Origin: an uncultured Bacilli bacterium
GTDB taxonomy: Bacteria > Bacillota_I > Bacilli_A > RF39 > UBA660
Reading direction: 5' to 3'
Length of the DNA: 38,123 nucleotides
Assembly (NCBI GenBank): GCA_947627835.1
Contig: CANQXM010000002.1
Coordinates: 1-38,123, forward strand
Each line of letters opens with the position of its first letter. Positions within the stretch are counted from its first letter, which is position 1. The position numbers and the translations under genes are program-made. Below the pieces are notes generated by a model. The model saw only the letters and a list, made by a program, of their open reading frames with translations. It was not told where the DNA came from and did not search any database. Of the stretch, positions 6,947 through 25,127 are shown in pieces.

Positions 6947-8026
6947 TTATAATTGTTCTACAAAAGTATCATATATTCTTCTATATCGATAAGTTATTCG
7001 ATTCGTACCTTCTTTTTTCTCTTTAACAATTATGTTTAGTTCAACCATTTTATTTAGTATATGATGAATTGAGTTTTTATGAACATTCAGCTCTTCCGCC
7101 ATTTCTCCAGCGGTAAATACGATTTTTTTCATCATTAAGGGATGCATTTTCAAAACGGTACTACCTTTTATATTTTGTTTGATTGTTTCTTCATCTTCAT
7201 CATAAACCCGATTAATTTTTTCGATTCTGCCAATATTTCTTGTACATTGATCAACTACGCATTGCAAGAAAAATCTAATAAACCCGGTGATATTTCCGTT
7301 TCGGCATTCATTAAGTGCATTATAGTAATTTGCTTTAAATAATTCTATAATTTCAGATAAAAATAATATTGGCTCATCCTCCTTTAGTTTAGCAAGTTGT
7401 AAAGTCATTAGTGCTCTTCCCATTCTTCCGTTTCCATCTTTATATGGGTGAATTGACTCAAATTGAACATGTGAGATAGCAACTTTAATAAAGGCTTCGT
7501 CATCATACGTATCATTCATGTATTCCATTAAATTATCCAAAAGTTCAGGAACTTCTTCTGGAATCGGTGGAACAAATGTGGCACCATCTTTTCCAAGGCC
7601 AATCGGTCCAATATAATTTTGTATGGATCTAATTTCTCCTGGAGATTTATCTTCTCCTCTAACTCCGGAGAGTAATATTTTGTGCATGGAGTTAATCATA
7701 CTAATGCTAAATTTTTTATCTTTTAATTTATCATTTGCATACTCTAGCATTTTCTTTAAGTTTTTAACTTCTTTAATACTATCATTTGTTTCTTTATAAT
7801 CCATATAATACATATCATCTTGAGATATTTGCGTTCCTTCAATTCGTGAAGATCGAATACTTTCTCCTAATACTAAAGAATCAAGGAAATATTTTTGATC
7901 GAATTTAAATACTTTTAATAACGATTTATATTGTCCATATTTATCGTTTGCTTGACCTAGAAGTTTTATAGTTTCTTTATCCAATTTATAAGAAAATGGT
8001 AGCATTTTCGCTTTATATGGTTCCAT
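6947..8026 (-). CDS. Fic family protein (AMPylase-type) with C-terminal winged-helix domain
   Basis: Fic active-site motif HPYKDGNGRMGRAL matches HxFx(D/E)GNGRxxR. The C-terminal AEELNVHKNSIHHILNKMVELNIIVKE looks like a wHTH. AAAGGAG RBS. Confidence 0.9.
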   Translation of the reverse strand: MEPYKAKMLPFSYKLDKETIKLLGQANDKYGQYKSLLKVFKFDQKYFLDSLVLGESIRSSRIEGTQISQDDMYYMDYKETNDSIKEVKNLKKMLEYANDKLKDKKFSISMINSMHKILLSGVRGEDKSPGEIRSIQNYIGPIGLGKDGATFVPPIPEEVPELLDNLMEYMNDTYDDEAFIKVAISHVQFESIHPYKDGNGRMGRALMTLQLAKLKEDEPILFLSEIIELFKANYYNALNECRNGNITGFIRFFLQCVVDQCTRNIGRIEKINRVYDEDEETIKQNIKGSTVLKMHPLMMKKIVFTAGEMAEELNVHKNSIHHILNKMVELNIIVKEKKEGTNRITYRYRRIYDTFVEQL

Positions 8027-14092: not shown

Positions 14093-16273
14093 TTATTTAA
14101 TTTTTCTTAATCGTAGGGCATTCCCAACAACACAGAGGCTTGATAACATCATAGCAGCACTGGCAATCATGGGACTAATTTCAATTCCAAATTTTTTCAA
14201 AAGACCCATAGCAACGGGAATCATGAGTGCATTATAGAAAAAAGCCCAGAATAAATTTTCTTTAATGTTTGTAAGTGTTCTTTTACCAATTTGTAAAAAG
14301 ATAGGAATTTTACCTAGATCATCATTGGTAATGATGACACTTGCTGAGTTACTTGCGATATCCGTACTACTTTTGAGACTTATGCCAATATCTGCAGTTA
14401 CTAAAGATGGCGCGTCATTAATTCCATCTCCTACCATCATGACTTTTTTTCCTTGTTTTTGTAATTCTTTTATATATGCCGTTTTATCACTTGGCAAGAC
14501 ATCGGACACTACTTTATCAATCTGTAGTTCTTTGGCAATTTGTTTAGCAGTCGTTTCATTATCTCCGGTAAGCATGATGACATCGTAGTTTGCTTTTTTT
14601 AAGGTTTCAATCGTTTGGATAGTTTCTTTTCTTACAATGTCTTTTACACCGATAAGGGCGATGATCTCATTTTCTTCCATTACATAAATGATGCTATTTT
14701 TTTCTTTGGTTAATTTTTCTTCTTCTTTTTGATAAGGATTCTTCTGATCTTTTAAAATACTTCGATTTCCTAATACGTATTTTTTATTATTTACTTTGGC
14801 TTTGATTCCTCTTCCTGGTAATTCTTTAAAATCTTCTACTTTGAGGTTTTCTCGTTTTTCATTTTGGAAGGCTTTTGCTAAGGGATGAGAAGTCTTTGAT
14901 TCGATATTACTAATGATGTTTAAAAGGGTCTCTTTGTCATAATTGGAATGGTTATAAAATGCAGCGATTTGGGGCGTTCCATATGTTAATGTTCCGGTTT
15001 TATCAAAGATGATGGTATCAATATGAGAAGCCATTTCCAACGTTTCACTGGATTTAATTAACAAATTACTTTTTGCAGATGCACCAATGGATGTTACAAC
15101 TGCAAGTGGCGTGGCAAGTCCAAGGGCACAAGGACAAGCTACTACGAGTACGGTAACCATAGTAATTAATGCTTCATTTAAACTCGCATTGAAAATGAGA
15201 TTCCCAATTAGTGTTAAAACCGCTAGAATGATGATAGAGGGAACAAAGTAAGCACTGATTTTATCAGCAATTCGTGAAATAGGCATTTTGGAATTACTTG
15301 CTTCTAATACGAGATGAACCATTTCAGAAATAGTCGATTTCGGTCCAATTTTTTCTGCTTTGTATTCAACAACGCCATCATAGTTCATACTTCCTGCAAC
15401 AATTTTATTCCCTACTTGCTTTTTAATGGGCGTAGATTCTCCGGTAATGAAGGATTCATCAAAATGAGCCGTTCCATCTGTGATGATTCCATCCACTGCG
15501 ACTTTCATTCCAGGTTTCACTATTAACAAATCCCCTATTTTGACTTCGTCGATGGTTGTTTCTTGTTCTTTTCCATTCTTTTTTAAAAGAGCACTTTCCG
15601 GTGTTACTTTTACTAATTCTTTGATGGCTTCTTTTGTTTTTTCTTTGCTATGTTGATCAATGGTTCTTCCTAATTTAACAAATAGAATCATCATACATAC
15701 AGATTCAAAATATAGATGCATTCCGGCGTCCATGCGTCCAAAGAATAGAAGAATTACATTTACAAAGCTATATAGGAAACTGGTTAGAACTCCTAAAGAA
15801 ACTAAAGTATCCATATTGGGAGATTTTAAAAATAAGTTTTTGATTCCCTTTATGAAAATATCTTTTCCATAAATAAAATAAGGAATCGTACATATTAATA
15901 AAGCAAGGGCATGATTTTTGGGATTTTCTTTCATACTCAAAGCAGGAATTTCTGGAAAATGAAACATATGAGCCATAGATAGATACATGATTAATATCAT
16001 GAAAAGGCCAAGTGCAATTAAAATCAAAATACTTCGATCTTTTTTATTTTTTTCCTCTTCTTTATAAATTCCTTTGTAAGTGTATCCAGAGTTTTTAATA
16101 TAACTTGCTAAGGTATCAATACTGATATCATCTTCATAGTGAATAAGTGCTGTTCCCATGACTAAATTTACAGAAACATCAATGATTCCTTTTTGTTTGC
16201 TTACGTATTTTTCAATGTGGTTGGAGCAAGCAGAACACGTCATTCCTTCAATTTTTAAGATAATCTTTTTCAT
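14093..16273 (-). CDS. copA: Copper-translocating P1B-type ATPase
   Basis: N-terminal HMA domain GMTCSACSNHIEKY. Also TGES (ITGESTPI), CPC (VVACPCALGLATP), DKTGTLT, and the GDGINDAP hinge. Confidence 0.95.
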   Translation of the reverse strand: MKKIILKIEGMTCSACSNHIEKYVSKQKGIIDVSVNLVMGTALIHYEDDISIDTLASYIKNSGYTYKGIYKEEEKNKKDRSILILIALGLFMILIMYLSMAHMFHFPEIPALSMKENPKNHALALLICTIPYFIYGKDIFIKGIKNLFLKSPNMDTLVSLGVLTSFLYSFVNVILLFFGRMDAGMHLYFESVCMMILFVKLGRTIDQHSKEKTKEAIKELVKVTPESALLKKNGKEQETTIDEVKIGDLLIVKPGMKVAVDGIITDGTAHFDESFITGESTPIKKQVGNKIVAGSMNYDGVVEYKAEKIGPKSTISEMVHLVLEASNSKMPISRIADKISAYFVPSIIILAVLTLIGNLIFNASLNEALITMVTVLVVACPCALGLATPLAVVTSIGASAKSNLLIKSSETLEMASHIDTIIFDKTGTLTYGTPQIAAFYNHSNYDKETLLNIISNIESKTSHPLAKAFQNEKRENLKVEDFKELPGRGIKAKVNNKKYVLGNRSILKDQKNPYQKEEEKLTKEKNSIIYVMEENEIIALIGVKDIVRKETIQTIETLKKANYDVIMLTGDNETTAKQIAKELQIDKVVSDVLPSDKTAYIKELQKQGKKVMMVGDGINDAPSLVTADIGISLKSSTDIASNSASVIITNDDLGKIPIFLQIGKRTLTNIKENLFWAFFYNALMIPVAMGLLKKFGIEISPMIASAAMMLSSLCVVGNALRLRKIK

Positions 16274-16277
16274 GAAA

Positions 16278-16487
16278 TTATCCTTCTATAACTTCAAAGC
16301 CAAGTTCATTTATTTTGTCTTTCATGATACGCATTGGCACTTCTTTGGTAAGAGTACACTTTACTTCTCCCGTTTTGTGATTGGCATCTACTTTTTTGAT
16401 ACCTTCTATATCACTTAAAGCATTTTTAATGCGATTTTCACATCCAGTACAAGACATTCCTTTTACTTTTACAATTACTTTTTCCAT
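16278..16487 (-). CDS. copZ: Copper chaperone, HMA domain
   Basis: 69 aa with GMSCTGCENRIKNAL (MxCxxC). AGGAGG RBS. Its stop codon (16278-16280) lies 4 nt upstream of the copA start codon at 16273. Confidence 0.9.
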   Translation of the reverse strand: MEKVIVKVKGMSCTGCENRIKNALSDIEGIKKVDANHKTGEVKCTLTKEVPMRIMKDKINELGFEVIEG

Positions 16488-16499
16488 CTATTTTTCCTC

Positions 16500-16808
16500 C
16501 TATTTATGAAATCTTTTAAATAAACTGATGATTTCATCGAGTGATTCTAATTTGCCATTTTCTAAATCATCGGTAATACAACTATATAAATGTTCTTCTA
16601 AAATCATGTTGGATAAATTTTGAATGGCTTTTTCCACTGCAGCTAGTTCGATTAGTACATCGTTGCAATAAACATTTTCATTAATCATTTTTTGAATGCC
16701 ATGAATTTGACCTTCAATTCGATTTAGACGATGATTTAATAATTCTAGGTCTTTGGTTCCACGTTTATTTTTTCGATAATGACAACATTTCTCACTCATT
16801 TTTTTCAC
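16500..16808 (-). CDS. csoR: CsoR-family copper-sensing transcriptional repressor
   Basis: RLNRIEGQIHGIQKMI core of the CsoR/DUF156 family, with C-H-C ligand positions (VYCNDV ... EEHLYSC). First gene of the cop operon. Confidence 0.9.
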   Translation of the reverse strand: MKKMSEKCCHYRKNKRGTKDLELLNHRLNRIEGQIHGIQKMINENVYCNDVLIELAAVEKAIQNLSNMILEEHLYSCITDDLENGKLESLDEIISLFKRFHK

Positions 16809-16883: not shown

Positions 16884-18077
16884 TTACTCGTTTTTTAAAA
16901 TGAATTCTTTTAATTTATTTATTTGGCGATTTAGTAAAACACATAGCCGATAGATTCGTTTATCAGAATATCCAGTTAAATGTTGGTATTGATGTAATAG
17001 ATCATCAAACCATTCAACAATTCCATCTAATTTGCTTATTTCAATTCTTTTTGGGTTTTTAACTACTTTTATGATTTCATCAAATGGTTTTACTTCATAA
17101 AATAATCTTCCACTTCCAGAAATGTGTACTTCATCTTCATCATAATATTCGATATTTAAACTTTGACCGTTATCAAATATTGGTGCTACATCTAGCCATT
17201 TTAAGGTATTCACATCTCTTATAATTCCAAAGTTATTTAAATGGCGATCTTCATTCATAATCAGAAAATCTAGAATATACATATTCTCCATTTTTTCTCT
17301 TGCATTTTCTATTCCATTATCTTCTAATTTTTTAATATATTCTTCATAATCTTCTAAACTATCATGTTTTTTCATATCATTTTTAATTTGATAGCAAGTA
17401 ATTAGTTCTGTATCTTTCGTTATAAAGCAGGGGCATTTTGATACTACGATATCTTTATAGGTATCAATGGTATATTCTACATGATTAAATCCGAGTCTTT
17501 TACAAATTTCACTTGCTAATGCTTCATTAAATGGTTGCAGCGTCTCATTTTTATAACCACCTTTTAATAGATATCTTATTCCGTTTTCTATTATCCAAGC
17601 TTTTTTAAGCATTCCATCGGTAGTATTATTTGGAGTTTTTAATGAAGTTTCTCTCGTAATTGTTTTACTATTTACTGATAAAGATGCTTCCATAAACTCT
17701 GCATAATCAAAATCATTGTCAAAGAAATTAATATCATCATAGGAAACGTCACTATCATAAGGTTTTAACCAATATTGATCGGATAAGGATAGTCCAAAAG
17801 CTTTATCTAAAAGTTCATAGGGTGCTATTATATTTAAACGATGTAATAATAAATCTAATTTATCACGCCATGAAGGAATTCCTCTTCCTTTAAACCAATC
17901 ACTTAAATTTTTTCGAAAGGGAGTGTCATTGATATCATCTTCCATATAAAAACTTTTTAAAATATAAGGTGCATAATTGATGTCTGTTACTTCGTAGATT
18001 CTATCGAAAAATTTTGATGTTTCATTATATTCAGCAGTCAATACTTCTTTATTTTTATTCATTAGTATACATTTCAT
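16884..18077 (-). CDS. HipA-like Ser/Thr kinase domain protein (solo, no HipB-like neighbour)
   Basis: The catalytic-loop-like motif LIMNEDRHLNNFGIIRD resembles the HipA_C (D/N)xDxHxxN pattern. AAGGAAG RBS. An extended -10 TGGTATAAT lies at 18115-18107. Confidence 0.65.
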   Translation of the reverse strand: MKCILMNKNKEVLTAEYNETSKFFDRIYEVTDINYAPYILKSFYMEDDINDTPFRKNLSDWFKGRGIPSWRDKLDLLLHRLNIIAPYELLDKAFGLSLSDQYWLKPYDSDVSYDDINFFDNDFDYAEFMEASLSVNSKTITRETSLKTPNNTTDGMLKKAWIIENGIRYLLKGGYKNETLQPFNEALASEICKRLGFNHVEYTIDTYKDIVVSKCPCFITKDTELITCYQIKNDMKKHDSLEDYEEYIKKLEDNGIENAREKMENMYILDFLIMNEDRHLNNFGIIRDVNTLKWLDVAPIFDNGQSLNIEYYDEDEVHISGSGRLFYEVKPFDEIIKVVKNPKRIEISKLDGIVEWFDDLLHQYQHLTGYSDKRIYRLCVLLNRQINKLKEFILKNE

Positions 18078-18316
18078 GAGTTAGTCACTTCCTTTTTAAT
18101 GCTATTATTATACCATACTAAACTAGATAAAAACACTTTCTCTGATGCAATTTTATCCATTTTCATTCATGGTTTTTCCTCTTTAAAATTTACTTTTTAA
18201 TCCTAATCGTTAAATGGTAATAATTTCATTAAAAATCTTCTTTACTTATATGATATTCCACCATTTTTTTAACATATTTTAAAAATAGGTTAAATTTTTA
18301 TTTCTATTTTCACCAA

Positions 18317-18346
18317 TTTACGAATTTGTCTTATCCGTGATACAAT
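18317..18346 (+). promoter_or_regulatory. Promoter of the 314-aa orphan gene
   Basis: TTTACG (18317-18322), an 18-nt spacer, then TG-A-TACAAT (extended -10; hexamer at 18341-18346). GAGGTGA RBS at 18353-18359 and ATG at 18364. Confidence 0.55.
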
Positions 18347-18363
18347 GAAATTGAGGTGATATT

Positions 18364-19308
18364 ATGGCTATTCAGGATCCAAAACCGGATGAAATTGTTC
18401 CTTCAAAAACTCAGAAAGGAAAGCAAGAAGGATTTACTATTCTTTTTACTGAGGCATATGCTATGCCAAGTAATACTTATGTGGAAGATGATTCTCATAC
18501 GTTTACGGTTTCTCTCGATCGAAGTCTTTGTTGGAAGAATTTTGGACGATGTTGGTTTGATGAAGGAGAGCGGGAGTTGATTGCCAAACAAACTGCTTAT
18601 AAGGAGTGGTTACTGGAGTTTTGTCCGCCGAAAGACTATGCTAAGTGTGGAATTATGTTTGGAATAAATGGAGTTTGCCATACAACTTCTAACCGAGAAT
18701 TATTGATTGGAGAAGATAACGTAGATGTTCGTCTTGCGCCGAAAAATTTTGTGACGGTTTCTATTTTTGGTAAATATGGGTTTGGTTTAGATATTTTAAA
18801 ACAACTCATTACAGATTCTTATCATCGGGCAAGTTTACAAGTACCGATGGCAGAAGATGTTTTACAAATGGTACTGGATCGTATTGATCAAACTTTAGAT
18901 GATGAAGTTTTGGCTTGGAGACAACTGATGAGTGAATATTTCATGTTACCAATTGAAACCATCTTACAAAAGCATCCGGATGCCGTGGCAAATTTACGGA
19001 TGATGATTACTCATCTTTTACAAAACCGTGAACTCATTTATGAAGAATTTCGCAAACGACAAGTTGTTCAACCGACCTATGAAAAAAATATTTATATGTT
19101 ACTCAGTCAAAGCGTTTCTAATTATTTGGACTTTTTGGTTCAAGCAGGCTATATTGATAATACGATGCGTACCAATGCCTTACAAGCAATGATCCTATTT
19201 TTTAATCGTTTGTTTCGCGTCGTTGATGGACAAGTACAAGCCGTTACCCAAATGGGAGGACTTGATCAAAATCTTGTTAAAAAATTACAACGAACGGGTA
19301 AAATTTAA
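18364..19308 (+). CDS. Hypothetical protein, no recognisable family; compositionally atypical
   Basis: A 314-aa ORF with a good RBS, its own promoter and a strong terminator. My hand count gives about 38-42% G+C in sampled lines (18601-18660, 19021-19080), against about 23-32% in neighbouring genes. It uses CCG/CGA/GCC codons that look uncommon in the neighbouring genes I read (not counted). Confidence 0.75.
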   Translation: MAIQDPKPDEIVPSKTQKGKQEGFTILFTEAYAMPSNTYVEDDSHTFTVSLDRSLCWKNFGRCWFDEGERELIAKQTAYKEWLLEFCPPKDYAKCGIMFGINGVCHTTSNRELLIGEDNVDVRLAPKNFVTVSIFGKYGFGLDILKQLITDSYHRASLQVPMAEDVLQMVLDRIDQTLDDEVLAWRQLMSEYFMLPIETILQKHPDAVANLRMMITHLLQNRELIYEEFRKRQVVQPTYEKNIYMLLSQSVSNYLDFLVQAGYIDNTMRTNALQAMILFFNRLFRVVDGQVQAVTQMGGLDQNLVKKLQRTGKI

Positions 19309-19335
19309 CTCTAAGTTTTCTTAGAGTTTTTTAAT
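19307..19335 (+). terminator. Strong rho-independent terminator after the orphan gene
   Basis: AACTCTAAG (19307-19315) / CTTAGAGTT (19320-19328), a 9-bp stem with a TTTT loop, followed by a T-run. Confidence 0.8.
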
Positions 19336-19374
19336 TTATTTGATTAAAAGTGCTACAAAATGTATCAAAAATAG

Positions 19375-19403
19375 TTGACTTTTTATTAAAATGGGTTCAA
19401 AAT
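19375..19403 (+). promoter_or_regulatory. Promoter candidate for ATPase A
   Basis: TTGACT (19375-19380), a 17-nt spacer, then CAAAAT (19398-19403), 50 nt upstream of the ATG at 19453. The -10 is weak. Confidence 0.35.
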
Positions 19404-19452
19404 GGAATAAATGAAAGCTTATTTTCCATATTATTAGTAGGAGGTTTTTTAT

Positions 19453-20808
19453 ATGTTTACTTATGTAAAAGCCAAAAACTTTAAATCTTTAAAAGATGTC
19501 TTTTTTCAATTTAATAAAAATAAAACTACGACAAATCACCTCATTGCATTATACGGAGAAAATGGCAGTGGGAAAACACATGTAGTTGAACTTTTTAAAT
19601 TTTTGCAATTTGTTACGATGTCTCGTTTACTGGATACTTCTGTTCAGAAATTACCCAAAGAATTTTTTGAAATGCGCTATCAAGTGGAAGAAAATTTTTC
19701 TCATGAACTTAGTTCTTTGTTATCTACTAACTTTCATCTTGTTGACTATCGAATGATTGATGAAACGGATCCTACTGAAATTGAATTTGGATTTAAAATT
19801 CAACAAAAAGAAGGATTTTACTTCATTCGTTTTAATCATGAAATCCTAGAAGAAAAACTATATTATGTTGCTGAAAAACAAAAGACCTATTTGTTTGATA
19901 TTCATAGGGAAAATGGAAAAATTGTTAAAAATTTCAGTAAACAGGTATTTAAAAATGAAAAATATAATAAAGAGTTGAAAGAAACGATTGATCAGTTATG
20001 GGGCAAGTATTCTTTTTTATCATTACTAACTTTTGAAATTCACGAAAAGAATCCTGATTATATTAAAGAGAGTCTTTCTATTTCTTTATGTGAAGTTCTT
20101 ACTTTGATTAGCCAGTTAACGGTTTTTGTCGATCGAAAATCTATGCCAAATTTACTAGATTCTCTTTTTGCACCGAAGGCAGATTTTCGTATTCAATCTG
20201 GAACGATCATGAAAGAAAATCTTATGGAACTACAAAAATATGAAACTGTTTTAAATATTTTCTTTACTCAAGCTTATGCAGATATTAAAGAAGTAAAATA
20301 TCAAACTATTGAAAAAGAGGATCAAATTCAGTATGAACTATATTTTTATAAAGTAATTGGAGGAACTTTAAAAGCAATTCCTTACCGCTTAGAATCTGCT
20401 GGAACAAAACGAATTTTAGATCATTTTGATGTCATAACTGGTGCACTTCTTGGAGAAGTTGTTGTGATGGATGAAATTGATAATGGAATTCATGATTTAC
20501 TTATGAAGAATATCATTTTATCTATTCAAGATGAAATTACTGGTCAGTTAATTTTTACAACTCATAATACGCTTTTATTAGAGGTTTTACCAAAAGAAAA
20601 TATCTATATTATATTTACGAATCCTACTGGAGATAAAATGATTCATTGTATACGTGATTACTCTATTCGTATTCAAAAGAATCATAATGCTAGAGATTTA
20701 TATTTAAAGGGAATCTTTGGAGGAATTCCAAATACGGATTATATTGATTTTGAAGAAATCAAATACAACTTAGAAAAGAGCGATCAACATGATGAAGAAA
20801 CGTCCTAA
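19453..20808 (+). CDS. ABC/OLD-type (AAA_21-like) ATPase, module A
   Basis: Walker A GENGSGKT (K41 = nt 19573-19575). Signature-like LESAGTKR. Walker B VVVMDEID. H-loop FTTHN. C-terminal YLKGIFGGIP tail shared with ATPase B (YLNGVFNGMP). AGGAGG RBS. Confidence 0.85.
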   Translation: MFTYVKAKNFKSLKDVFFQFNKNKTTTNHLIALYGENGSGKTHVVELFKFLQFVTMSRLLDTSVQKLPKEFFEMRYQVEENFSHELSSLLSTNFHLVDYRMIDETDPTEIEFGFKIQQKEGFYFIRFNHEILEEKLYYVAEKQKTYLFDIHRENGKIVKNFSKQVFKNEKYNKELKETIDQLWGKYSFLSLLTFEIHEKNPDYIKESLSISLCEVLTLISQLTVFVDRKSMPNLLDSLFAPKADFRIQSGTIMKENLMELQKYETVLNIFFTQAYADIKEVKYQTIEKEDQIQYELYFYKVIGGTLKAIPYRLESAGTKRILDHFDVITGALLGEVVVMDEIDNGIHDLLMKNIILSIQDEITGQLIFTTHNTLLLEVLPKENIYIIFTNPTGDKMIHCIRDYSIRIQKNHNARDLYLKGIFGGIPNTDYIDFEEIKYNLEKSDQHDEETS

Positions 20809-21388
20809 TTATATACGTATTATTGTGATTGCTCATGGAAAAAGTGAACTTTTACTTGCAGAACATATCAAAAGTAATCTTCATCTTCCGATTCAAATCT
20901 ATGCTGAAAATCATGGAAAAACCAGTATTATGATTGATGGACTTCCCAATGTTCTTGGCAATAATATTTTTAAAAATAAAACTTCTTTGTTACGTCATTA
21001 TGCAATTGAAACTAGTGGAAAGCAACTTAAAAATTTGGTTATCATGCCTATTATGGATTTAGATGAAACGAGTGTAGAAGCTTATAAATCGAAAGAGATT
21101 TTTGCTAGTCATTGGCTTTCTCCTTATATTGTTCCAATTTGGAATAATGAAAATTTGGATGCCGTTTTATTTCATCTTGGACTTATTGATCATATTCCGA
21201 ATGATAAAGAAAAAGGAAAAATGTATCGTCAGCTTTTTCCTACTAATCATGAAGGTCCTGATTTTGAACAAGTAAAAATGTTAAGGGACGCATTTAGAAA
21301 TTCGAAAAACACAAATATGGAAATTTTTTTGGATGCCTGTCTCCAGTGTTTTGAAGAGTTCTATTCGGATGATACCAAAAGTTCATAA
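20789..21388 (+). CDS. Small RloB/Toprim-like partner protein, module A (degenerate first acidic motif)
   Basis: The start overlaps the ATPase A stop by 20 nt. Three blocks, IIVIAHGKSE, IMPIMDLDE and VPIWNNENLDAVLFHL, align by eye with FVEGENDE, FLWDRD and SYPCIQSYILENF of the module B partner. They also align with the EGxxTE / vFDrD / SNPcFElWlLlH blocks I recall for RloB-like proteins. Confidence 0.55.
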   Translation: MMKKRPNYIRIIVIAHGKSELLLAEHIKSNLHLPIQIYAENHGKTSIMIDGLPNVLGNNIFKNKTSLLRHYAIETSGKQLKNLVIMPIMDLDETSVEAYKSKEIFASHWLSPYIVPIWNNENLDAVLFHLGLIDHIPNDKEKGKMYRQLFPTNHEGPDFEQVKMLRDAFRNSKNTNMEIFLDACLQCFEEFYSDDTKSS

Positions 21389-23109
21389 GGACTAGCTAGA
21401 GTTCCATTGCCACTTGTCATTTTCACTCCGGCTTTTAGATTGATGACTGGTCGTACTCCATTTGGAAAATTCACACTGTTTCCCATCAGTGTCCCATCAT
21501 AATACATGGCTCTTACGTAGGCAAAGTCACCAAAAAAGGCTCCAGATGACATCGTCCAGTAATTACTTCCGTTATATAAATAAAAATGGGTGTTAGCTGC
21601 AATGTAAATGCCACCGGCATAGGTAATTTCATCTTGGGTAATTAAACCAATGGGATAGGTTAAGGCGCCATTCCCTATCGTTTTATCTGTTACTGTGAAA
21701 CGGTCACTTGGATTTTCACAGCGGTATGTGACATCCTTCCCTGCTATGTCATAACCGCGATAATAGGTTTCTTTTTCACCGAAGCCCATTTCATTTTGAT
21801 GATACCAATTTCCAAAAGGGGAAAACTGGTTTTCAATTCCAAGTTTCGTTGCAAACTCATAAAAATTTTGATAAACCTCTTCTTTCATAATGCTTCGGTC
21901 ATTACAAAAAAGAGTATCTGATATCATCTTTTCATAGATTGTATTTTGAAGATTTGTTTCATACCAAGCATCTAGCGCTTTTTTAATTGTGCTATCCACT
22001 TTATTTGTTTGGGCATTTTTTTCACTGGTACTTGGAACATCTCCGTACATATAACCTACATATGCATTATCACTGGCATTGGTATTAAAACTTACAGCAG
22101 TGGTAATTTGAGAATCTGAGCCTTGATAATCTTCTTTCTTGGTTTTATTTGGATCATATTCTCCAGTATAGATTAACCGAATGGAATCATCGCCGTTTAC
22201 TCTTATAATTCGCCACATTTTATTTGCAAAGACCACATAATTATTTTCTACTTCTCCACGAAAGTAATAACTGACTCCATAGTCATCAAATGTTTTATAA
22301 AGGCCATTTGTTGTATCATAATGATTGATATCATACGTAAAAGCAAATTGATCATAATAGGGACTATCTTTATATTGTGCTAAAATGCTTGCAAATTGTT
22401 CTTCGATTTCTTCTTTGGACTTCACGCTTACAGCAGCTTTTCCAATTTGAGGAACATTTTTGGTATCTACCTCTGCAATTATTTTACACATCAAGGCATT
22501 TTCTCCATATTTTTTTATGCACTTTTCTTCTTCGGTCGGAACGGATGATGTATAAAACGCTTTTACGGTTATTTTCCCTTGATAGGTTTTTGAATTTGTT
22601 TTTGAGCTGGCTTTGGTATTTTCATCTAACCATAGACGTAAATTATATTGAACGCTACCTTCTTTTGAGAAATATTCTGTATAAAGTTTTCTTGAATTTT
22701 GAGCGTTTTTAATAGTTGGAGTAGCCTTTTCATAACCGTTTAGTATTCCTAAGGTGTGTTCTTCCTTGTTTTCTGTATTTAACTCTACTTTTAGGTATTC
22801 ATCTGATAAGTCACTACCCTTTAATTCCTCTAAGTATATTTCATACATAACATTCGATGAGCAGGTATTTTGAATGGTAAATTGATAAGGCTCTGTACTC
22901 ATTCCTTCTTGATCGGTCATTGGCAAAACATTGGGTAAGTAAATTCCACTATTATCTTCTGTAAAATCCACTTTTAAACAATCTGTTGCTACGACATTTG
23001 CCATGTTTTCTTCACTTGCAAACAACCAATGCGCGTAGGAAGTTCCACTTACTACCAATATAATTAAAAGAAACGTTACTGCTAAGAAAAGAAGTATTTG
23101 CTTTTTCAT
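21361..23109 (-). CDS. Secreted or cell-surface protein with a TasA-like signal region and a DUF6273-like C-terminus
   Basis: The N-terminal KKQILLFLAVTFLLIILVVSGTSYAHWLFASEE resembles SipW/TasA-type leaders (GGTFAYFSD-like). The C-terminal YWTMSS...GVRPVINLKAGVKMTSGNGTLASPYEL is of the W..S../RPvI.L/GdGT..nPY type common in Firmicutes surface proteins. Confidence 0.7.
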   Translation of the reverse strand: MKKQILLFLAVTFLLIILVVSGTSYAHWLFASEENMANVVATDCLKVDFTEDNSGIYLPNVLPMTDQEGMSTEPYQFTIQNTCSSNVMYEIYLEELKGSDLSDEYLKVELNTENKEEHTLGILNGYEKATPTIKNAQNSRKLYTEYFSKEGSVQYNLRLWLDENTKASSKTNSKTYQGKITVKAFYTSSVPTEEEKCIKKYGENALMCKIIAEVDTKNVPQIGKAAVSVKSKEEIEEQFASILAQYKDSPYYDQFAFTYDINHYDTTNGLYKTFDDYGVSYYFRGEVENNYVVFANKMWRIIRVNGDDSIRLIYTGEYDPNKTKKEDYQGSDSQITTAVSFNTNASDNAYVGYMYGDVPSTSEKNAQTNKVDSTIKKALDAWYETNLQNTIYEKMISDTLFCNDRSIMKEEVYQNFYEFATKLGIENQFSPFGNWYHQNEMGFGEKETYYRGYDIAGKDVTYRCENPSDRFTVTDKTIGNGALTYPIGLITQDEITYAGGIYIAANTHFYLYNGSNYWTMSSGAFFGDFAYVRAMYYDGTLMGNSVNFPNGVRPVINLKAGVKMTSGNGTLASPYELLVSSE

Positions 23110-23150
23110 AAGGCTGTCCTTTCATTTTTACTACTCTCTTATTTGCAGTT

Positions 23151-23180
23151 AGTATACAACATGATGACAAAAATCGACAA
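23151..23180 (-). promoter_or_regulatory. Promoter candidate for the secreted-protein gene
   Basis: On the minus strand, TTGTCG (23180-23175), an 18-nt spacer, then TATACT (23156-23151), about 40 nt upstream of the ATG at 23109. Confidence 0.35.
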
Positions 23181-23224
23181 TCTTTTATTTCTATTATTTA
23201 CATATTATTCCTAATATTTTTTAT

Positions 23225-24010
23225 TTATGGTCTTTCAGTTATGATATTTAAATCAATTAAAATGATGGAAACCAGTGATAACATTTTATAGTATTGATGA
23301 TTTGAAAAGAAGTTTTCTTCATATTCAAATATTTTCATATTGGTTTTCGAAAAGTTGGATGGATCATAATCTTTGATTCCTATTTTCATCAATTTATTAT
23401 GAAGCATATTAACGCTTTTTAATAAAGTATGTGTATTTATTTCACTAATTCTATATCCGTTTTTCGAAAGGTATTTTTTTAAATCTTTGATTTGTAAATT
23501 TTCTGTATTTTCTTTAAAATTTTCTAAAATATAACTTTGAATACATGGGTAACTTAGCAATAATAAGCCATTGATACCATCATTATTTTCATAAGCATTT
23601 CCTAATGATTTTAATAATTTCTTTGTAATATCGGCACGATTAGATATATAATCTCGGTCCCATAAAAAATATATTGGTACATTTTTTATATCTATATGAT
23701 ATTTTTCATACATCATTTTAAATATCTGATTTTGGTAATCCACATCTTTCACAATATTCTGAATATTAGAATTCCTTAAATTGATTACCAATATTTGTGA
23801 GTTTTCATTTCCTCTCATTACATATTGATCATAGTCATTTATTTTTACTCTATTTCTCTTTTTTTCAATGTATCGATAGTGAAGTACATTTCGAAAAATT
23901 TGTTTTAATATTTCACATTCATCATTTTCGCCTTCAACAAATATTACTACTGTTCCAATGTTTCTGCGCAGATTAATCTTTAAAGTGCTTGTTGTATTTT
24001 GGCATTCCAT
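23225..24010 (-). CDS. RloB/Toprim-like partner protein, module B
   Basis: VVIFVEGENDECEILKQIF (Toprim Glu block), PIYFLWDRDYIS (DxD block) and LLLSYPCIQSYILENF (the SNPCFELW-like block of RloB-like proteins). I prefer the ATG at 24010 (GGAG 6 nt upstream) over the one at 24022. It overlaps ATPase B by 38 nt. Confidence 0.65.
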   Translation of the reverse strand: MECQNTTSTLKINLRRNIGTVVIFVEGENDECEILKQIFRNVLHYRYIEKKRNRVKINDYDQYVMRGNENSQILVINLRNSNIQNIVKDVDYQNQIFKMMYEKYHIDIKNVPIYFLWDRDYISNRADITKKLLKSLGNAYENNDGINGLLLLSYPCIQSYILENFKENTENLQIKDLKKYLSKNGYRISEINTHTLLKSVNMLHNKLMKIGIKDYDPSNFSKTNMKIFEYEENFFSNHQYYKMLSLVSIILIDLNIITERP

Positions 24011-25127
24011 TGAAAACTCCATTTAAATACATTTTTTCTGTATTTTGAGATTCTCTTGGCATTTCTTCCGAGAATCTTTTGAGTACGCTTCCCTTTTTTG
24101 GGTTAAAAGTAACAGAATAAATTTGGTCTGGACGAAGGATGGTGTTATTTAATAAATTGGTTGAATGGGAAGCTAAGAAAATTTGTGAGTTTTTCGCATA
24201 GTGAAAAAAGAATTTCAAAAAGCTTTCTTCTAGTTCATTATGAAACCCACTACTAAATTCATCAACGACGATGATACAATCATTTTTGATAGCATGTAAG
24301 AAAGAAGGAATTAATTGCATTAATGTAACATTTCCAGTAGATTCAAATATTTCAGGAATATAAATATTTGTTCCATTTTTATTAAAAGAAACATATTTTT
24401 TGTTATTATCTATTACTACTTGAATTTTTCCTTTTAAATCTATCTTCTCTTTTCCATAAGAAATGGTTTGTGGGTAATTAATTTGTTCTAGGAATTTATT
24501 TATCATGCTTACATCATGTTCATTTAAATAATCATGAATTAACAATGATTCGTCTGTATAGCAATGGGCTTTACGTGTATAACAATTAATATAGACTGAG
24601 TTTTTCATATAATCAAACCACTTATTTAGTAACTTATCATCATAGAAATGAGTATCAAAATAAATTCTTCTTAAAAAGGGTAGTTTTTCAGAAACATTAT
24701 CAAAATTTTTTTCTTTCTCAAAAGTAAATTGGGCATTTTTTCCAAGTCTCTTTAAAATATTTTGATCATTGATATAGAGTTCTTCTGCAACAATTTTTGT
24801 TAAATCGAGCTCAATATAATAGCGAATAGTTTGATTATCTATTAAAAAAGTATACTCAAATTCATAAGTTTCTTTTTCACTATAAAAACTTTTTTTAAAT
24901 AAAAAATCGTTTTCCTTATTATCAAAGAGAATATCTAATAGAAAACGAATGGCTTCCAGTATTTTGGTTTTTCCTGAGGCGTTTTCTCCGACGAAAAGAC
25001 ATCCTTTTAAGATTCGATTGGCTCCAACATTTTCACTTTCTAAAAATTTATAGTTTGTAGCTGAAAAATCAATTTCAGTCTTATTTAAAAATGTTGTATA
25101 ATTGTTGATCATAATTTTTTTTAGCAT
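23973..25127 (-). CDS. ABC/OLD-type (AAA_21-like) ATPase, module B
   Basis: Walker A GENASGKT. Signature-like FESTGNVT. Walker B CIIVVDEFSSG. H-loop LASHSTNLL. C-terminal YLNGVFNGMP. Confidence 0.85.
   Translation of the reverse strand: MLKKIMINNYTTFLNKTEIDFSATNYKFLESENVGANRILKGCLFVGENASGKTKILEAIRFLLDILFDNKENDFLFKKSFYSEKETYEFEYTFLIDNQTIRYYIELDLTKIVAEELYINDQNILKRLGKNAQFTFEKEKNFDNVSEKLPFLRRIYFDTHFYDDKLLNKWFDYMKNSVYINCYTRKAHCYTDESLLIHDYLNEHDVSMINKFLEQINYPQTISYGKEKIDLKGKIQVVIDNNKKYVSFNKNGTNIYIPEIFESTGNVTLMQLIPSFLHAIKNDCIIVVDEFSSGFHNELEESFLKFFFHYAKNSQIFLASHSTNLLNNTILRPDQIYSVTFNPKKGSVLKRFSEEMPRESQNTEKMYLNGVFNGMPKYNKHFKD

Follow-up and report, generated by a model that had tools for sequence, protein, structure and literature searches.

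An AbiL/RloAB-like ATPase and Toprim-like module in an uncultured Bacilli bacterium, with a partner from a widespread, uncatalogued His-variant family

Gene order and expression signals of module A

We investigated module A, a pair of overlapping genes on the + strand of a 38,123-nucleotide (nt) stretch of DNA from an uncultured Bacilli bacterium (GenBank assembly GCA_947627835.1, contig CANQXM010000002.1, positions 1 to 38,123; hereafter, the window). The first gene encodes a 451-amino-acid (aa) ABC ATPase and the second a 199-aa protein, referred to here as the partner. Module A is an AbiL/RloAB-like ATPase and Toprim-like module, and its new part is the partner, which belongs to a distinct, widespread, and previously uncatalogued family with a histidine in place of the first catalytic glutamate. 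An earlier note on this DNA had listed the two open reading frames (ORFs), an overlap between them, and a set of protein motifs, all of which were confirmed, the motif positions by script. The features of the locus are:

19307..19328 (+), terminator-like hairpin that ends the upstream 314-aa gene and marks the 5′ boundary of module A
19375..19403 (+), promoter-like sequence TTGACT-17 nt-CAAAAT, 5′ of the ATPase gene (consensus scan, 9/12 matches)
19439..19444 (+), strong Shine-Dalgarno (SD) sequence AGGAGG, 8 nt 5′ of the ATPase ATG (read from the sequence)
19453..20808 (+), AbiLi-like ABC (AAA_21) ATPase, 451 aa (Pfam, PADLOC, and PHROGs matches)
20773..20780 (+), purine-rich SD-like sequence GAAAAGAG within the 3′ end of the ATPase gene, 8 nt 5′ of the partner ATG
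20789..20808 (+), stretch of 20 nt shared by the ATPase 3′ end and the partner 5′ end
20789..21388 (+), partner, 199 aa, remotely RloB/AbiLii-like (Toprim-like), predicted effector (conservation, hhalign, and MAFFT merge)

The hairpin is the sole terminator-like site detected within positions 18000-23300 and, together with the promoter-like site, sets the pair apart from the upstream 314-aa gene. The promoter-like site is weak evidence, because such sites are numerous in the AT-rich DNA here. A three-gene system including the 314-aa ORF was rejected, as a terminator lies between this ORF and the pair and the ORF is not conserved beside the pair elsewhere. Within the 3′ end of the ATPase gene, GAAAAGAG reads as a putative SD sequence for the partner, and translation of the two genes is probably coupled at their overlap; every homologous locus with the pair shows an overlap of at least 4 nt between the ATPase stop and the start region of the partner. 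On the opposite strand, the 3′ end of a convergent 582-aa gene overlaps the non-conserved 3′ tail of the partner gene by 28 nt.

The ATPase contains GENGSGKT (residues 35-42), LESAGTKR (313-320), VVVMDEID (336-343), TTHN (369-372), and YLKGIFGGIP (417-426); its catalytic residues are the Walker A lysine (K41), the signature at 313-320, the Walker B pair D340-E341, and the H-loop histidine (H371). Its assignment to the AbiL/PARIS class of ATPases, as proposed in the earlier note, was borne out by matches to Pfam AAA_21 (E-value 1.5e-20, 74.9 bits, cutoff 27) and to PADLOC AbiLi (8.9e-43, 144.6 bits), followed by AriA (1e-21) and the candidate PDC-M07A (7e-17). Moreover, the protein matched phrog_5836 in PHROGs (2.5e-45), and NCBIfam returned only subthreshold matches to MAD3 and PtuA. 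With the Walker A motif, the Walker B Asp-Glu pair, and the H-loop intact in 40/40 ATPase homologs, the protein should be a catalytically competent, active ABC ATPase. No additional effector domain was detected in it by Pfam scan, and a PDB sequence search with the ATPase gave no matches.

In the partner, the script placed IIVIAHGKSE at residues 11-20 (including H16), IMPIMDLDE at 85-93 (including D90 and D92), and VPIWNNENLDAVLFHL at 115-130. Its full signature comprises H16-G-K-S-E20, D90-x-D92-(D/E), N119...D124, K142, Y146, and T175-N176.

Distribution and kinship of the partner family

To place the pair in other genomes, we searched reference contigs, taken from one genome per species, with the partner-family alignment A1. 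This search yielded 40 loci, all in metagenome-assembled genomes (MAGs) of uncultured gut Bacillota, the nearest being an uncultured Bacilli MAG from rabbit gut (97% identity). The ATPase lies directly upstream of the partner in 35 of these 40 loci and in 35/35 of those that are intact and informative; of the remaining five, two are cut by contig ends and three hold partial partner remnants without an ATPase. No intact partner lacking the ATPase was found among the 40 loci. The identities of the two proteins to their window counterparts co-vary, from ∼60%/60% down to 36%/35% (ATPase/partner). The same order, with overlapping genes, recurs in four metagenomic contexts, and the pair is also found on a conjugative plasmid of Enterococcus faecalis, as an AAA ATPase and a 195-aa hypothetical protein, and in the temperate Oenococcus phage phi9805, where the C-terminal part of the partner is frameshifted. 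The ATPase and the partner are thus a strictly co-conserved pair.

Several individual loci depart from the common form. The three partial fragments (L047, L052, and L056; approximately residues 43-185), with no ATPase upstream, look like decayed remnants. In phi9805 (NC_023559; L012 4992..5566), the partner keeps VHGKSE, MDLDD, and NLED, and the frameshift falls within its C-terminal helical domain. The phage annotation gives this partner as a hypothetical protein of 149 aa that follows an 'ATP-binding protein'; it may be a pseudogene or reflect a sequencing error. In L044 (2989..4041), the partner ORF extends to 351 aa, of which the tblastn match covers query residues 1-160 only; this could be a fusion or a lost stop codon.

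At 90% clustering, the partner family comprises 408 relatives, all of 188-199 aa and without Pfam domains, and at 50% identity it forms 369 clusters, nearly all of 185-210 aa. The small size of the partner is therefore a property of the family and not a truncation. Further, the description of the partner as unusually small did not hold, because authentic RloB proteins measure 195-224 aa; the partner is small only beside AriB and the partner protein of the neighboring module B (described below).

Conservation was assessed in 74 diverse family members that are 27-53% identical to the window protein. Among these, H16 is conserved in 71, G17 in 73, E20 in 72, D90 in 72, and D92 in 69 (with a further three having Glu), whereas position 93 is Asp in 57 and Glu in seven. 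An acidic residue occupies position 124 in 73/74, Y146 is present in 69/74, Thr or Ser at position 175 in 72/74, and N176 in all 74. The 93-100% conservation of H16, G17, E20, D90, D92, N176, and an acidic residue at position 124, maintained in members of as little as ∼27% identity, indicates that the partner motifs are not a product of chance.

Profile comparisons suggest that the partner is remotely homologous to the RloB/AbiLii Toprim proteins, a kinship that appears real but remote and falls outside Pfam RloB membership. Firstly, the PADLOC AbiLii model weakly matches 13 of the 74 members (best E-value 5.8e-5) and mad4 matches three; these two models, both describing Toprim partners of ABC ATPases, are the only PADLOC models that match at least three members, and in member P0300 their matches span residues 6-129, that is, the β1-β4 core with the motifs. 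The family consensus found nothing in PADLOC, and neither the window protein nor the consensus matched the AbiLii model at E≤1. Secondly, hhalign aligned the family, end to end and collinearly, with authentic RloB (PF13707) proteins of 195-224 aa that are encoded beside related ATPases on plasmids. The local score was 32.0 (P 3e-4; global P 5e-5), as compared with 12.7 for reversed RloB and maxima of 20.8 (local) and 11.5 (global) over 120 column- or block-shuffled versions. Single RloB sequences scored weakly against the family profile (20.6 and 13.5).

A MAFFT merge of the two families placed H16/G17/S19/E20 on RloB E19/G20/T22/E23, D90/D92 on D79/D81, Y146 on Y143, and T175-N176 on T185-N186. 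The two methods agree in co-aligning E20 with E23, D90-D92 with D79-D81, and T175-N176 with T185-N186, in collinear order, and together they uphold the proposal that a histidine stands at the first catalytic glutamate while the DxD block is kept. Two family members bridge the motifs, namely P0303, with VHGETEY against CEGETEKY in RloB, and P0300, with LDKD and YNDECLE against YDKD and SNECFE.

At the structural level, a Toprim fold of the partner is suggested by AlphaFold models (pLDDT 88.2 and, with a deeper alignment, 95.5), which show a β1-α-β2-α-β3-α-β4-α core (residues 11-130) followed by a C-terminal helical domain (139-197). This order of elements fits the Toprim fold. The top PDB fold match of both models is the Toprim region of an OLD protein (6NJV; E 0.014-0.016, TM 0.31-0.34), and several topoisomerase II Toprim domains are among the weak matches. 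PDB sequence searches with the family profiles A1 and A3 gave no match at E≤10. Of the Toprim-like nature claimed for the partner in the earlier note, the remote profile likeness to RloB is thus supported, whereas the fold match falls short of significance. 6NJV has also been reported to superpose on AbiLii (PMC13064643).

The surroundings of the pair were scanned across 116 flanking ORFs at 39 reference loci. A complete type II CBASS (DncV-like cyclase, E1-E2/ThiF, and JAB) lies directly downstream and on the same strand in 7/39 loci, starting ∼70 nt downstream of the partner (L021, L038, L039, L040, L050, and others). The pair and CBASS are probably separate modules that share a hotspot, because the pair elsewhere occurs without CBASS. 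Other flanking genes encode restriction-modification (R-M) subunits, MADS components, Schlafen-type helicases, and further AbiLi ATPases. No third gene is conserved beside the pair in the neighborhoods examined. Type I R-M genes adjoin the pair in two metagenomic contexts, and a general association with them was rejected, as they occur within 3 kb in 0/40 reference loci. In a Type I R-M locus beside the pair at L007-L008 (1843..4313), several hsdS fragments in both orientations flank a tyrosine recombinase, and the locus has the layout of a phase-variable specificity shufflon.

The predicted active site and its interpretation

In the models, H16/E20, D90/D92, and N119/D124 would lie at the C-terminal ends of β1, β3, and β4, respectively, a placement that, judged from secondary-structure topology, would bring them together in one cluster. 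A characterized reference is AriB, the effector of PARIS, whose Toprim site consists of E26, D30, D88, E90, and E122, and in which an E26A mutation abolishes both PARIS defence and tRNA cleavage (PMC11464382; bioRxiv 10.1101/2025.02.04.636281). AriB works with Mg, Mn, or Co (bioRxiv 10.1101/2025.02.04.636281). The partner pattern, H16-x3-E20, D90-x-D92, and an acidic residue at 124, keeps four of these five acidic positions (E20, D90, D92, and D/E124 against D30, D88, E90, and E122), and the 34 residues from D90 to position 124 equal the distance from D88 to E122. H16 replaces the first Glu, equivalent to AriB E26 and RloB E19; the column aligned to it holds Glu in 19/19 RloB sequences and in 19/19 sequences of the module B partner family. 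A histidine is able to coordinate Mn, Co, Zn, or Fe and also to work as a general base, which makes it plausible that H16 alters metal use or chemistry.

Taking together how the genes are arranged, the family and its conserved residues, the co-conservation of the pair, the remote homology, and the defence-island context, we interpret module A as a self-contained bicistronic ATPase and nuclease module of the AbiL/RloAB/PARIS type, most likely serving phage defence by abortive infection (rough probability, 0.55). Under this interpretation, the ATPase would be made in excess from its strong SD sequence, and the partner would be translated by coupling from within the 3′ end of the ATPase gene. The ATPase would act as a sensor and sequestering subunit that holds the partner inactive and senses an infection cue, by analogy with AriA and AriB. 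The partner would be the catalytic effector, a metal-dependent nuclease (acting on RNA or DNA) that is released or activated on infection, and H16 may serve either as a general base or as a metal ligand, in the latter case perhaps moving the metal preference toward Mn, Co, Zn, or Fe. There is precedent for such an effector in an AbiLii homolog from F. nucleatum that is toxic in E. coli (PMC3985639).

A number of observations weigh against this interpretation. On the side of kinship, no curated model in Pfam, NCBIfam, PHROGs, or PADLOC recognizes the window protein, in keeping with the suggestion in the earlier note that such a variant would fall below existing models; Pfam RloB matches 0/74 family members and does not match the window protein at E≤1; the hhalign probability against RloB is only 40%; a locally built RloB hidden Markov model (HMM) scores the family sequences at decoy level (13.4 bits at best, where decoys reach 11.1); and the acidic motif of β4 does not co-align automatically in the MAFFT merge. 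On the side of structure, none of the fold matches reaches E≤1e-3, a deeper alignment did not improve their significance, and neither AriB nor GajA appears in the fold-match list. As for function, some loci have housekeeping neighbors (YebC and Ogt), and, because AriB E26A is dead, a histidine at the equivalent position could mean that the canonical activity has been lost.

The last point leads to the rival proposal of a Toprim-like partner that has lost catalysis and regulates the ATPase or serves as its adaptor, with any effector activity residing elsewhere; the earlier note had suggested, as an example, a regulatory rather than a nucleolytic role. The replacement of the Glu equivalent to AriB E26 and the lack of a significant structural match to active Toprim nucleases both speak for it. 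However, conservation of the histidine and of the four acidic positions stays at 93-100% even where identity falls to ∼27%, which would be unusual in a dead site; in addition, the ATPase lacks any other effector domain, and no third gene is conserved nearby. These facts together argue against a purely inactive, regulatory partner. Moreover, a histidine is capable of metal binding and of acid or base chemistry. We therefore regard a dead partner as unlikely.

Similarly improbable is that the pair is mainly a toxin-antitoxin (TA)-like addiction module that stabilizes mobile elements rather than sensing phage, although its mechanism would overlap with that of the defence module that we prefer. 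Copies on a conjugative plasmid and a prophage fit such a role, AAA ATPase and Toprim_OLD pairs behave as TA pairs in NetFlax (PMC10440598), and the only ATPase-free partners are degraded fragments. Most copies, however, are chromosomal and sit in defence-island-like contexts with CBASS, R-M, and MADS genes, and, in the AbiL system of F. nucleatum, AbiLi failed to neutralize the toxicity of AbiLii (PMC3985639).

Very unlikely, finally, is that the partner is no Toprim relative but a flavodoxin-like His enzyme (for instance a phosphatase, or a phosphohistidine carrier resembling PTS EIIA-Man) whose likeness to the RloB motifs is convergent: EIIA-Man (1pdo, 3lfh, 3mtq, and 3ipr), LarB, receiver domains, and Ssu72 are among the weak fold matches, with E-values similar to those of the Toprim matches, and the active His of EIIA-Man lies where β1 ends, in a 'THG' motif, but (i) hhalign against validated E. 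coli EIIA-Man scored at null level (12.2, E 0.27) as compared with 32 for RloB, (ii) no EIIA-man or phosphatase family of Pfam recurs among the 74 members, (iii) the conserved E20, DxD(D), E/D124, and TN are matched in RloB and AriB and not in EIIA-Man, and (iv) pairing with an AbiLi-type ATPase is obligate for the partner. EIIA-Man identity was accordingly rejected at the sequence level, on the hhalign score and the lack of Pfam EIIA-man matches.

Within the preferred interpretation of a defence module with a nuclease effector, the histidine allows a bolder and more tentative proposal, which we put forward as possible though doubtful. Proteins of the HGxSE...DxDD...E/D...TN type may be mechanistically distinct 'His-Toprim' nucleases, using another metal, a His general base, or a new substrate. 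Together with the AbiLi-like ATPase dedicated to them, they may make up an anti-phage system that is missing from the catalogues, is spread widely among gut Bacillota, and rides on plasmids and prophages.

Neighboring genes and known systems

In the window, module A lies between a HipA-like gene and a second AbiL-like module (module B). The former (16884..18077, -) encodes a HipA-like kinase (Pfam HipA_C, 6.6e-8; PADLOC candidate PDC-M03A, 9e-21), with no obvious HipB-like partner seen adjacent to it. Module B (23225..25127, -) encodes a 384-aa ATPase that matches PADLOC AbiLi (3e-48) and PDC-M12A (4e-32), as well as a 265-aa partner that weakly matches AbiLii (7.8e-4), has no Pfam domain, belongs to a 54-cluster family, and aligns to RloB in hhalign (probability 38%, E 3.4e-4). 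This module, too, would probably be missed or under-called by current models. Two further proteins, the 314-aa protein upstream of module A (18364..19308, +) and the 582-aa protein between the modules (21361..23109, -), the latter with an N-terminal signal-like segment, had no match in Pfam, NCBIfam, PHROGs, or PADLOC. One flank of the island holds a Fic/DOC protein (6947..8026, -) and a CsoR-like repressor accompanied by a copper P-type ATPase (14093..16808, -), and the other holds capsule and polysaccharide genes (PGA_cap and Polysacc_synt). The region from 16.9 to 25.1 kb has the appearance of a defence islet that was inserted.

Systems that combine an ABC ATPase with a Toprim protein (OLD, Gabija, PARIS, AbiL, RloAB, and MADS3-4) form a major and partly understood class of bacterial immunity. 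To this class the pair adds a partner family that is common in Bacillota of animal and human guts, travels on mobile elements, and goes undetected by the four model libraries; current annotation would therefore miss the pair or call an orphan ATPase. The Glu-to-His change, at a position whose Ala mutant kills AriB, offers a natural experiment on Toprim catalysis. Should the partner prove to be an ordinary effector nuclease, defence-system catalogues would, in practice, gain one new HMM; interest would rise if the histidine confers distinct chemistry or targeting.

The closest comparison within the window is with module B, which likewise couples an AbiLi-like ATPase to a Toprim-like partner through overlapping genes. 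Its partner, however, is larger and keeps the canonical Glu (E29), and identity between the two ATPases is only 25%, across 128 aa. In a MAFFT merge, H16/G17/E20 fell on E29/G30/E34 and D90/D92 on D121/D123 of the module B partner, which supports the first two blocks of the block-for-block correspondence drawn in the earlier note; the third block did not co-align. As hhalign between the two partner families was not significant (E 0.11 and 0.17), their similarity appears to be at the motif level only, with each family linking to RloB separately.

Among the described systems, PARIS (AriA/AriB; class 4 OLD-like) shows the same split between a sensor ABC ATPase and an effector of the Toprim kind and, as noted above, similar spacing of its acidic residues (E26-x3-D30 ... 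D88-x-E90 ... 34 residues ... E122). AriB, in contrast, is a DUF4435 protein of ∼300 aa with Glu where the partner has His, and no DUF4435 or AriB match was found for the window protein or the 74 members in Pfam or PADLOC, nor by fold.

RloA/RloB pairs (e.g., E. faecium WP_086316100 and Enterobacter WP_058685403) have a partner of the same size (∼200 aa) downstream of an AAA_21 ATPase, and some of their loci likewise lie beside Type I R-M genes. The motifs [E/H]GxxE, DxD, Y, and TN are collinear in the two families, and their hhalign score exceeds all shuffles. The differences are that no family member matches Pfam RloB, that RloB E19 (19/19, in the CEGxxTE motif) is His in 71/74 members, that the invariant RloB block of S105, E110, and H116 has no automatically aligned counterpart in the partner, and that the ATPases are only ∼24% identical.

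AbiL (AbiLi/AbiLii of Lactococcus lactis, with a PADLOC model) has the same bicistronic order, with the ATPase first and the smaller partner second. The ATPase of module A gets a strong AbiLi score, weak matches to AbiLii recur in the partner family, and 6NJV, the best structural match of the partner, is the one reported for AbiLii. Unlike AbiLii, however, the window partner has no match to the AbiLii model at E≤1 and carries His at the catalytic Glu, and its relatives form a cluster of their own, made up of ∼190-aa proteins.

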